Shown piece after piece: positions 25,468-33,423 of a stretch of DNA of 64,000 bases. Both the position numbers and the translations under genes were made by a program. Origin of the DNA: an uncultured Bacteroidota bacterium. GTDB lineage: Bacteria > Bacteroidota > Bacteroidia > Bacteroidales > UBA10428. Below the pieces are notes generated by a model. The model was not told where the DNA came from, did not search any database, and saw only the letters and a program-made list of their open reading frames with translations. Location of the stretch: positions 512,910 through 576,909 of the forward strand of contig CAVTDR010000002.1 of the NCBI GenBank assembly GCA_963733535.1. The letters run 5' to 3'. Numbering within the stretch: position 1 is the first letter of the stretch; every line of letters starts with the position of its first letter.

Positions 25468-27363
25468 GTGATACGTATAAACGATTTTAAAATTGGCACA
25501 CGGTTAAATTTGGTATTTAACATTGCATTCACAGTCATTCTCGCATTATTTGGTTTATATACTATTATTTCTCAGCGGAATCAGATTTCCAAAGATACTG
25601 ATACCAGAATGTATGAACAGGTAAATGATTTGTCCAATCTTATTACCGATCAGGTAAATCTAAGGCAGTCTAATACGGCATATGCTCTGAAAGTTTGCGA
25701 AAATACCATTCTGGGTGCCGGAAATTTCAACACTTCTGCTGAAAATTATACCATCAATGCAAAAAATCAGGAAACCGGCATGACATCTCCTGTTTCACTA
25801 AAAAAGATTTATGTGAAGGGACAGCTATTGTATAATAACGCTTCCGTTATCGATAAGGTAACAGAAATTACTGGTGCGGTAGCAAGTATATTACAAAAAA
25901 TTCCCGGAGGGTATATACGGATAACCACTTCCATTAAGCAGGATGACGGGACAAGGGCAATAAACACATTTATCCCGGATCATTCACCGGTTGCAAAGGC
26001 AATGGACAGGTTGGAAACTTATTATGGCCGGGCCATGGTTCTGGGTGACTGGTATCTAACAGCTTATAAGCCTTTTCGGCTGACGGATGGCACCATCATG
26101 GTACTTTTTACGGGAACACCGGAAAAAAATCTGGCATCACTTAAAAACTACTTTCATGCAAAAAAATACTTAAAATCGGGATATCCGTTTCTGATTGATA
26201 AGGAGGGCACAATTATAATACATCCTTCTAAAGAAGGCGATAATGAAAAGAAAGCCGATTTCTTTAAAACCTTACTGGCGGACACCGACGGATATGGAAC
26301 ATCAGAATATATGTGGGATGGCCGGCTTAAGCAACAATATTACAGGTTTTTGCCACAAATTGAATCCTATTTAGTAGTATCCATCTATCGGAATGAATAT
26401 CTTCAGATAATACGGAGGGCAACTATAGTCACTGTAATTTTCACACTTATGGGTATTATCTTTTTTGCCATTATCAATAGGTTAATAAGTAGTTCAATTA
26501 CAAAAGCACTAAAGAAAGGAGTCGACTTTGCAAAACATATTGCAAGTGGCGATCTTACGGTTCAGTTAAATATTGATCAAAAAGATGAGATCGGAGAATT
26601 GGCAAAAGCTTTGTCACAGATGCTTGAAAAAATACGTGAAGTAGTAGCTCTAATACGATCAGGAGCAGAAATTATTGCCTCCGCGAGTAGCCAGATTAGT
26701 GAAGGAGCCCAGCAATTATCACAGGGGGCCACAGAGCAGGCTGCCACCACAGAGGAAATTTCTTCATCAATGGAAGAAATGGTAAGTAATATTCAGCAAA
26801 ATGCTGAAAATTCTCGACAAACGGAGCGTATATCAGGCAAAGCTGCTGAAAGCATGGTTGAAATGAGTACCATTGGCCGTGAAAGTTTTGATTCTATAAA
26901 AACCATTGCTGAAAAAATAACCATTATCAATGACATTGCCTTTCAAACAAATTTGCTTGCCTTAAATGCAGCGGTTGAAGCTGCCCGTGCAGGTGAACAT
27001 GGTCGCGGTTTTGCAGTAGTTGCAGCTGAAGTAAGAAAACTTGCAGAACGCAGTAAGGCTGCCGCGGAGGAGATACAAAATCTTTCCAGAAACAGTTTAA
27101 AAATTACTGAAACTACTAGAATCTCTCTCGAGTCACTGGTCCCGGAAATTCAGAAAACCTCTCAGCTGATTCAGGAGATCACATCAGCAAGTATCGAACA
27201 AAACGCCGGCGCAGAACAGATCAACTCTTCGATTCAGCAGTTAAATATGATCACCCAGCAAAATGCATCATCATCGGAAGAAATGGCCATCGGCGCAGAA
27301 GAATTATCCTCACAGGCTAAAGGATTGAACGAGGCAGTGGCATATTTTAATACTGGTGCATGA
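25468..27363 (+). CDS. Methyl-accepting chemotaxis protein (Cache-type ectodomain, HAMP, MCP signalling domain)
   Basis: GTG start, two TM segments, HAMP ([22 protein letters not shown]) and the signalling hairpin tip [40 protein letters not shown]. Confidence 0.9.
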
Positions 27364-27530
27364 AAGAGCTATTCTCATTCTTCCTGAAAACTTCATGCAA
27401 TAAGTGTTTTGACAAATTCAGTTTTTTTATATCTTTAAAATTCTAAATACCTGCCTGACATTCTCAGCAAACCCATTGAGACTGACATTACGTGTTATAA
27501 CTTGTAATTTTTTCAATACCATTTTTTTAA

Positions 27531-28178
27531 ATGTCTGTAAACACAAAGATTGCTGTTGTTGATGATCACGAATTCTATCGTCAGGGACTTATTCTAGCCC
27601 TCAGGCATTTCGAATCCATTGATGTGGTTTATGAGGCTACAAACGGAAAAGAATTTCTTGAAAAACAGAAAAAAGATCCGGTTGATATTGTTTTTATGGA
27701 TTTGAAAATGCCCATCATGGATGGCTATCAGGCTATTCTTGAGTCAAAAATACAGTTTCCGAATCTTAAAATTATTGTGCTGACTATGTTCGAAGAGGAT
27801 GAATATATTCGTAAATCCTTAAAGGCAGGAGTTAATGGATATATCATCAAAAATATTGGCAAGGAAACCTTACAAACAGCTATTAATTATATACTTCAGG
27901 GTAAACCCTACTTCTCCAATGAACTGATGCCTTTCTTTGCTAATCAACTCCATGAAATCAGGAGTGTTGAAAAAGTACATATCGAACTTACCCCCCGTGA
28001 ACTGGAAATACTAAAAATGATTGGGGATGGCTTTTCAAATCCTGAAATCGCTGATAAACTTTTCATCAGTTACCGGACAGTGGCCAATCACCGTGCAAAC
28101 CTGAAGAAGAAAACATTGGCAAAGAATACAGCAGAGCTGATTCGTTTCGGATTGAAAAACAAATTAATTTCTCCCTGA
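27531..28178 (+). CDS. NarL/LuxR-family response regulator
   Basis: REC (IAVVDDH...VFMDLKMPIMDG...LTMF...IIKN) plus LuxR HTH (LTPRELEILKMIGDGFSNPEIADKLFISYRTVANHRANL). Confidence 0.9.
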   Translation: MSVNTKIAVVDDHEFYRQGLILALRHFESIDVVYEATNGKEFLEKQKKDPVDIVFMDLKMPIMDGYQAILESKIQFPNLKIIVLTMFEEDEYIRKSLKAGVNGYIIKNIGKETLQTAINYILQGKPYFSNELMPFFANQLHEIRSVEKVHIELTPRELEILKMIGDGFSNPEIADKLFISYRTVANHRANLKKKTLAKNTAELIRFGLKNKLISP

Positions 28179-32920: not shown

Positions 32921-32931
32921 TCTTTTGAATC

Positions 32932-33423
32932 ATGGCAACTATAGATATTGATCAAAAAAGCAGTTATGTCAATCTGCGAATTGGGACAGAAAGTTTCGCA
33001 ATTAGCGTCTACAAAGTTCTCGAAATTATACAGGTAGAGCAGATAACCCAAGTTCCAAATTCATCCGACTACGTTTTGGGTGTATTAAATTTCAGGGGGG
33101 ATATCGTTCCGGTTATTGACATGCATAAACGCTTTAATGTTGAGGATAACGACAGCCATAAAGACTGCATGGTAGTGGTTGTCGATGTGGAGCACAAAGA
33201 TAAAAAAGTACTGATGGGCCTACTGGTAGATGAGGTGTCGGATGTAATTGAATTCGAATATAAGAACATCAAGTCGGTTCCTGATTTGGGAATAAAATAC
33301 AATCCTGAATTTATTGAAGGATTTATCGACCAGAAGGATAAATTTATCATGGTATTGAATACCGACCGGGTATTAAACGTCAAAGAATTATCCGAGGTAA
33401 GTCAGGTTTCATTGGAAAATTAA
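32932..33423 (+). CDS. cheW: Chemotaxis coupling protein CheW
   Basis: 163 aa: FAISVYKVLEIIQVEQITQVPNSSDYVLGVLNFRGDIVPVIDMHKRF. Confidence 0.85.
   Translation: MATIDIDQKSSYVNLRIGTESFAISVYKVLEIIQVEQITQVPNSSDYVLGVLNFRGDIVPVIDMHKRFNVEDNDSHKDCMVVVVDVEHKDKKVLMGLLVDEVSDVIEFEYKNIKSVPDLGIKYNPEFIEGFIDQKDKFIMVLNTDRVLNVKELSEVSQVSLEN

Follow-up and report, generated by a model that had tools for sequence, protein, structure and literature searches.

An apparent partitioned duplicate of an F8-like chemosensory system in a non-flagellated bacterium of the Bacteroidales

Introduction

Chemosensory (Che) pathways with a transcriptional output are known, as in the Che3 systems of Myxococcus and R. centenum. 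Two further pieces of background bear on the locus described here: HisKA_3 kinases partner NarL-family response regulators, and in E. coli the tethered receptors Tar and Tsr assist the adaptation of the tail-less receptors Trg and Tap. The locus is a six-gene cluster within a stretch of 64,000 nucleotides from an uncultured bacterium of the Bacteroidales (assembly GCA_963733535.1, contig CAVTDR010000002.1); the whole stretch is referred to below as the window. The cluster encodes two methyl-accepting chemotaxis proteins (MCP1 and MCP2), a NarL/LuxR response regulator, CheY, CheA and CheW (Table 1).

Among the described systems, 34H receptors, a C-terminal receptor pentapeptide and an insertion in CheR have been tied to class F8 (PMC11253619; the 34H-F8 link also in bioRxiv 10.1101/2022.05.07.491037), and the F8 system of Pseudomonas has no clear motility role (PMC11253619). 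The system studied here resembles that of P. syringae pv. tomato (cluster II, CheA1/CheY1, PSPTO_0912) in its 34H receptor with an aromatic C-terminal pentapeptide, in a CheR with a β-subdomain insertion, and in a CheY-CheA-CheW core accompanied by CheR, CheB and CheD; in both, the physiological output is unclear. Unlike its counterpart in P. syringae, it resides in a host without flagella, it is duplicated with its components split over two loci, a PAS-HisKA_3/NarL pair is built into it, and an outer-membrane barrel gene belongs to the cluster in relatives.

The reading put forward here, in which we place moderate confidence, is that the window cluster represents one of two partitioned, paralogous copies of a non-flagellar 34H/F8-like Che system, whose receptors would be adapted in trans by enzymes encoded at the other locus, whose LuxR-type regulator would belong to a separate signaling arm, and whose output would be CheY.

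Results and Discussion

Two Paralogous Clusters

The region 25468-33423 contains six intact open reading frames (ORFs) with the expected Pfam domains, all on the plus strand and in the order given by an earlier note on this DNA, made from the letters alone; the ATGA overlap of the cheY stop with the cheA start, also described there, was recovered. CheA comprises the P1 (Hpt), P3 (dimerisation), P4 (ATPase) and P5 (CheW-like) domains. Its top matches in the Protein Data Bank (PDB) are the CheA proteins of E. coli and T. maritima, and Tsr is among the PDB matches of the MCPs. The core of a Che pathway (MCP hairpin, CheW, P1/P3/P4/P5 CheA and CheY receiver) is thus complete in the window cluster. 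The two MCPs align without gaps over 631 aa with 68% identity; residues ~471-529 around the signaling tip show no differences, and divergence peaks at residues ~61-125, in the ectodomain, which agrees with the shared tip and diverged Cache ectodomains that the note had reported. Its observation that CheR, CheB and flagellar genes are missing from the window likewise stands, as none was found among the 44 annotated ORFs of at least 150 aa.

In the host genome (4.49 Mb on 16 contigs, 96% complete), a second Che cluster is located on the minus strand of contig C10, with the order CheD, PAS-HisKA_3 kinase, CheW, CheR, MCP, CheY, CheA, CheW, CheB. The sensor of its MCP is of the Cache_3-Cache_2 type. 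The window proteins share 70% (CheA), 75% (CheY), 67-72% (CheW, against the two C10 CheWs) and 52% (MCPs) identity with their C10 counterparts. For the MCP signaling domains the value is 83%, and a 40-residue tip is free of differences across MCP1, MCP2 and the C10 MCP. The genome contains exactly two CheA, three CheW, two CheY, one CheD and five MCP-signal proteins, together with five CheR-domain and three CheB-domain genes; the genome-wide search for adaptation, flagellar and gld genes that the note had proposed therefore returned CheR, CheB, CheD and gld genes and no flagellar ones. The CheR and CheB genes of contig C6 lie amid GAF/PAS/SpoIIE genes or within a CheB-CheR-PAS fusion, and are outside any CheA pathway. 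The array at C6:278001-292000 encodes CheR, GAF/PAS, CheR, CheB, GAF and PAS-GAF-SpoIIE phosphatase proteins, and a CheB-CheR-PAS_10 fusion of 975 aa occupies L027:5823-8750.

The relationship between the two clusters becomes apparent from relatives with a single one. Four such metagenome-assembled genomes (MAGs; L014, L016, L017 and L022) share one order from CheD to CheB, namely CheD, PAS-HisKA_3 kinase, LuxR regulator, MCP, MCP, CheY, CheA, CheW, porin, CheR, CheB, and because it is found in the synteny of single-cluster relatives we regard it as ancestral. Their MCP pair consists of a short, tail-less receptor followed by one of 686 aa with a DFxxF tail, and the porin gene between cheW and cheR encodes an outer-membrane barrel of ~424 aa. 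A MAG of the same genus as the host (L011, L012) has two equivalent split clusters. In its window-type copy (L011), a 385-aa PAS kinase is still present between MCP1 and the regulator, where the host retains 167 nt. The window proteins are 78% (CheA) and 79% (MCP1) identical to these same-genus orthologs, and in a concatenated CheY-CheA-CheW tree each paralog joins its same-genus ortholog with support of 100/100, the stem being longer in the window lineage (0.31 vs 0.14).

Taken at face value, this pattern would mean that an ancestral single cluster was doubled before the host species split from its congener, with gene losses afterwards that differed between the copies and complemented each other. 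What the window copy would have retained is two Cache receptors, the LuxR regulator and CheY-CheA-CheW, and the C10 copy CheD, the kinase, CheR, one receptor, CheY-CheA-CheW with a second CheW, and CheB. What speaks against this history is that the concatenated tree gave neither a firm backbone nor a firm sisterhood of the window and C10 lineages, the approximately unbiased (AU) test giving p = 0.32, with monophyly of the four copies not rejected. The window copy could, alternatively, have been acquired from closely related Bacteroidales rather than by duplication within the genome; a tree of CheA only, with a Desulfobacteraceae outgroup, provided no resolution between duplication and acquisition.

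The window genes show pN values of 0.08-0.17 (MCP1 0.139, LuxR regulator 0.169) with synonymous sites saturated at pS 0.73-0.83, for these two genes as for the others. Since pN is low while synonymous sites are saturated, all genes are under long-term purifying selection. The window copies evolve ~1.7-2.7 times faster than their C10 counterparts.

Several features of the relatives' clusters deserve separate mention. The barrel between cheW and cheR has no Pfam match and ends in YKF (L014:12516-13790, L016:12535-13794, L017:12521-13810, L022:9123-10397); the only homolog in the host, at C2:108614-109873, is unlinked and shares 33% identity. A second barrel, of the Alginate_exp family, is encoded between the LuxR regulator and the receptors (L013:4610-5887, L016:4596-5876). 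In L017, a REC-HisKA-HATPase hybrid kinase (13826-15016) lies between the porin gene and cheR; its domain layout is that of R. centenum CheS3, and CheA could pass phosphate to it. Loss of the Che system is possible within the host genus, as shown by another of its genomes, G270 (97% complete), in which no CheA homolog is present.

Receptor Class

The coiled-coil arms of the window receptors extend over 17 heptads from HAMP to the tip (E510) and ~17 back, and the alignment of MCP2 with the 36H receptor Tsr requires exactly one 7-residue gap per arm. As both the heptad number and the single 7-residue deletion in each arm point the same way, the window receptors are assigned to the 34H class. Judged by receptor length, pentapeptide and CheR type, the system as a whole appears F8-like.

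Methylation-Dependent Adaptation

The note had suggested that the cluster may run without methylation-based adaptation, and had proposed a search for methylation sites in the MCPs. This search was productive: the window MCPs carry motifs at positions 425 (EE), 573 (EQ) and 600 (EE), at the positions that they also occupy in the C10 receptor and all orthologs, and aligning with E304, Q311 and E493 of E. coli Tsr. Furthermore, MCP2 possesses ~45 additional C-terminal residues ending in DNDFGSF, the C10 receptor ends in DFEKF, and the D-F-x-x-F tail is kept in all long orthologs; MCP1 is devoid of a C-terminal tether. Following a flexible linker, the MCP2 tail conforms to the pentapeptide pattern xZxxZ, with Z being F, W or Y (PMC7390727), and DFGSF is a putative tether for CheR and CheB. 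On the enzyme side, the alignment of the C10 CheR with the pentapeptide-dependent CheR of Salmonella (1BC5) is gap-free over a segment in which CheR1 of P. aeruginosa (5XLY) needs a 4-aa gap, and the C10 enzyme is accordingly predicted to be of the tether-binding type, with the β-subdomain insertion.

From the retained methylation motifs, the DFGSF tail and the tether-type C10 CheR, we infer that adaptation of the window MCPs in trans by the C10 CheR, CheB and CheD is much more likely than no adaptation at all. The three enzymes would dock on the DFGSF tail of MCP2 and adapt the window receptors from there; within mixed arrays the tail-less MCP1 might also be served, with MCP2 providing the docking site and MCP1 being assisted. 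The arrangement is reminiscent of Tar/Tsr and Trg/Tap in E. coli, in that MCP2 has a linker and an xZxxZ pentapeptide while MCP1 is tail-less and has methylation sites and the same tip. Because these sites are kept and the tips are alike, the two receptors could share arrays and enzymes. It differs from E. coli in a tail that reads DFGSF in place of NWETF, in receptors of the 34H class that carry Cache sensors, and in a CheR and a CheB encoded in a separate, paralogous cluster. Two considerations temper this picture: the third site of MCP1 (600) departs slightly from the strict consensus, and adaptation in trans is deduced from motifs, gene inventory and ancestral adjacency.

Output of the Pathway

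By sequence reading, CheY has the canonical acidic pocket together with the Thr, aromatic and Lys switch residues. In the proposed mechanism, MCP1 and MCP2 would detect small molecules in the periplasm and, by way of CheW, control CheA; CheA would phosphorylate the translationally coupled CheY, and the target of CheY~P would belong neither to a flagellum nor to a pilus. CheY is treated here as the probable output of the pathway. Comparison of the Cache sensors with the PDB gave only weak matches (best E = 3e-5), from which no ligand is inferred.

Profile searches of the host genome returned no FlhA, no flagellin and no FliMN_C, in agreement with the non-flagellar character that the note had assumed. 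The ATPase profile T2SSE (PilB/PilT, PF00437) likewise found no match in the host genome, while 13 of 14 control genomes were matched. Neither flagella nor type IV pili can thus be driven by the pathway. On the other hand, GldK, GldL, GldM, GldN and PorP/SprF are present, all above the NCBIfam cut-offs, two window ORFs carry the Por_Secre_tail sorting domain of the type IX secretion system (T9SS), and the close relatives of the window CheA are all from Bacteroidales MAGs. The host is therefore a T9SS-type member of the Bacteroidota, as had been proposed.

Given the full adaptation system, several periplasmic receptors and the in-cluster porin of the relatives, taxis through T9SS-powered gliding is our leading guess for the output, slightly ahead of a non-motility process that is nearly as likely, but it is a tentative one. 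A more specific version, in which CheY~P acts directly on the gliding apparatus linked to the T9SS (either its rotary motor, GldLM, or the adhesin track) and the two arrays share one set of adaptation enzymes while reading different chemical inputs, is regarded as unlikely. The link to gliding or the T9SS suggested in the note accordingly persists as a possibility but has gained no specific support: GldJ is found in 31 of 34 CheA-positive and 38 of 46 CheA-negative families (69 of 80 one-per-family genomes overall), that is, regardless of CheA. Moreover, nothing ties CheY to gliding, and a search of the whole six-frame translation for a FliM-like CheY-docking peptide yielded none, the one internal match being attributable to chance. 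All three observations count against a gliding output. Co-occurrence of CheA with gliding genes was abandoned as a test, since with GldJ nearly universal in the order it has no discriminating power. Literature searches yielded no relevant work on what Che pathways do in Bacteroidales, Marinilabiliales or gliders.

The main competing view of the output is that CheY and a partner control secretion, surface polysaccharide, development or second-messenger levels, in the manner of many Che systems with alternative cellular functions; we consider it only slightly less likely. There is no flagellar or pilus target in the genome, the presence of CheA is uncorrelated with that of GldJ, distant Bacteroidales clusters carry STAS and extra kinase-like genes of the sort that goes with partner-switch or regulatory outputs, and even in Pseudomonas the F8 system is without a clear motility role (PMC11253619). 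However, the own lineage of the host lacks STAS and partner-switch genes, and the complete adaptation set, single-domain CheY, several periplasmic small-molecule receptors and relatives' porin are what gradient-sensing taxis would call for.

One observation on the gliding genes themselves requires comment. The host gldJ is frameshifted, and an adjacent MurF-type ligase gene is split over three frames (C8:374900-377900, loci L029-L036); the DNA of both is 80-87% identical to the intact same-genus genes (L050). That gldJ is a pseudogene and the host consequently non-gliding was considered and rejected, because the adjacent murF, an essential gene, is broken as well; the frameshifts are probably a local assembly error.

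The LuxR Regulator and Its Kinase

The note had suggested that the cluster may control transcription through its LuxR-type regulator. In the relatives, the regulator gene directly follows that of a PAS-HisKA_3 kinase (L011, L013-L017). Profile searches over all ORFs of the host identified exactly four HisKA_3 kinases (292-325 bits, next match 45) and exactly four NarL-type regulators (298-337 bits, next match 114). Adjacent genes encode three kinase-regulator pairs, which leaves the C10 kinase and the window regulator unpaired. The C10 kinase is cytoplasmic, with PAS sensors, and has no receiver domain able to accept phosphate from CheA. Within the window, a gap of 270 nt separates the regulator from the tight MCP2-cheY-cheA-cheW unit. 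On account of the ancestral adjacency, the four-plus-four inventory, the receiver-less kinase and the 270-nt separation, the window regulator is most likely the partner of the C10 PAS-HisKA_3 kinase and not the output of CheA. In the window it is an orphan whose adjacent kinase was lost. The C10 kinase, itself an orphan, would then phosphorylate the regulator in place of CheA, and the regulator would form a separate transcriptional arm, possibly setting the expression of che or mcp genes.

As in NarX/NarL systems, a HisKA_3 kinase is combined with a REC-GerE/LuxR regulator, and the two genes are adjacent in relatives. Unlike in those systems, the kinase is cytoplasmic with PAS sensors, and the host partners lie on separate contigs, each inside a different Che cluster. 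The Che3 systems of M. xanthus (Che3/CrdA) and R. centenum (CheA3→CheS3→CheY3) also have a kinase and a DNA-binding regulator inside a non-flagellar Che cluster. Here, in contrast, the embedded kinase lacks a receiver for CheA phosphate, a canonical single-domain CheY is coupled to CheA, and the NarL-type regulator has its own HisKA_3 partner. Transcription-factor output via CheA with no separate cognate kinase, which would characterize a Che3-like system, does not appear to be the arrangement found in this genome.

These findings bear directly on the reading of the cluster as a self-contained pathway, in which CheA phosphorylates the LuxR regulator for transcription and methylation adaptation is absent. 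The regulator gene does stand between two receptor genes in a window that encodes no cognate kinase, CheR or CheB, and the Che3 systems show that such outputs exist elsewhere. In addition, HisKA_3/LuxR pairs occur beside Che clusters of distant Bacteroidia (L041, L049), a recurrence that makes some functional connection plausible, for instance control of che expression; this hint, and the fact that the kinase-regulator pairing is deduced from inventory and ancestral adjacency, weigh against a fully separate LuxR arm. Nevertheless, every relative with the ancestral or the sister arrangement has its own PAS-HisKA_3 kinase before the regulator, and the only unpaired HisKA_3 kinase of the genome sits in the C10 cluster. 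The canonical cheY overlaps cheA, the regulator being set apart from that unit, and three methylation sites and a CheR/CheB tether are kept under purifying selection in a genome that does encode CheR, CheB and CheD. Both an adaptation-free mode of operation and an output through the regulator are consequently disfavored, and the self-contained pathway is considered quite improbable.

Least credible by far is a decaying, redundant duplicate without a function of its own: the loss of CheD, kinase, CheR and CheB from the ancestral order, the faster evolution than the C10 copy, the mobile DNA on its flanks (tandem insertion sequence copies and a group II intron) and the CheA-less G270 would fit it, but no ORF of the six is disrupted and the catalytic motifs are in place, the congener retains an equivalent reduced gene set, and the low pN at saturated synonymous sites speaks for long-term purifying selection.

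Features of the Window

The coordinates of the cluster and of two further features are collected in Table 1. The six chemosensory genes listed in the note were correct, but a third receptor, in which a Reg_prop β-propeller/Y_Y_Y sensor of the hybrid two-component system type is joined to an MCP signaling domain, had been omitted. Its signals probably go to one or other of the two CheA arrays.

Table 1. Chemosensory genes and associated features of the window
Feature	Coordinates	Strand	Description
MCP1	25468-27363	+	GTG start, 631 aa; transmembrane receptor; periplasmic Cache_3-Cache_2 sensor, HAMP, MCPsignal (Pfam)
NarL/LuxR response regulator	27531-28178	+	215 aa; REC and GerE helix-turn-helix (Pfam), NCBIfam NarL-like models
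MCP2	28449-30494	+	681 aa; architecture as MCP1 (Pfam); ~45-aa linker and C-terminal DFGSF
CheY	30543-30908	+	121 aa, single-domain receiver (Pfam); top NCBIfam model CheY
CheA	30905-32920	+	671 aa from ATG at 30905; Hpt, H-kinase_dim, HATPase_c, CheW domains (Pfam)
CheW	32932-33423	+	163 aa, coupling protein (Pfam)
Candidate intrinsic terminator	33493-33506	+	70 nt past cheW; consensus match only
Third receptor, Reg_prop/Y_Y_Y-MCP fusion	38039-41347	-	1102 aa; tip motif RAGEQGRGF

Footprinting against the same-genus congener revealed conserved intergenic blocks upstream of MCP1, MCP2 and the C10 MCP, in which no shared LuxR-box-like motif could be called. A scan for sigma-70 promoters remained at or below chance, as expected from a consensus that differs from Bacteroidota promoters.

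Directly downstream of cheW, a group II intron extends over 33617-35378 on the minus strand, with a reverse transcriptase (RT)/maturase ORF at 33617-35026 and Rfam D1-D4 RNA matches at 35057-35378; a 160-nt probe of its RT gene occurs 13 times in the genome. Two identical tandem insertion sequence copies of 1636 bp follow on the plus strand (41510-43145 and 43200-44835), each with a 411-aa DDE_Tnp_1 transposase, the first 200 nt of whose ORF occur eight times in the genome. Two neighboring minus-strand genes at 15761-19466, which lie upstream of the Che cluster at a distance of about 6 kb, encode a KaiC-family double-domain ATPase (565 aa) and a PAS-HisKA histidine kinase (439 aa). Two large T9SS cargo proteins with cohesin-like domains, one with Fib_succ_major and the other with Laminin_G_3 and each ending in Por_Secre_tail, are encoded at 49656-55668 on the minus strand. 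In the last segment (60001-64000), the GC content falls to 0.29-0.31 and a tyrosine integrase gene is present at 60448-61677; this segment may be the edge of an integrated element.

Distribution in the Bacteroidales

With a threshold of E ≤ 1e-30, a CheA homolog was detected in 141 of the 401 genomes sampled from the order; counted by genus, the figure is 103 of 236. FlhA was absent from all 80 CheA-positive genomes of high quality surveyed in the order, which span 68 genera. In a phylum-wide sample, three CheA matches came from Bacteroidia outside the order, and other classes gave mostly partial, more distant matches. The note's statement that Che pathways are uncommon in the phylum therefore applies to Bacteroidia outside the order and not within it. 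The distant clusters of the order (L037-L049) carry an accessory set that is not part of the window cluster, comprising a ~600-aa protein without Pfam match and a ~105-aa STAS protein upstream of cheY, and a ~300-aa HisKA/HATPase protein between cheR and cheD. In the reading proposed here, a Che system of the non-flagellar 34H/F8-like kind is widespread in the Bacteroidales.

Conclusions

The cluster is best explained as a duplicate, with its parts partitioned, of an F8-like Che pathway, a type of system that is already known. In about one third of the sampled species of the order, complete Che systems with adaptation enzymes occur together with neither flagella nor type IV pili, and these systems must therefore drive something else. 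To our knowledge, model gliders lack Che genes, and for this reason the steering of gliding Bacteroidota is an open question.

The genus of the host constitutes a natural experiment, with two recently diverged arrays and complementary gene loss. One locus encodes the adaptation enzymes and the sensor kinase, the other their probable substrates, and with this split layout cross-talk between arrays, adaptation in trans and the part played by the embedded two-component pair can be tested directly. If true, direct action of CheY~P on the gliding machinery would provide gliding Bacteroidota with the signal-transduction route for chemotaxis that has been missing.

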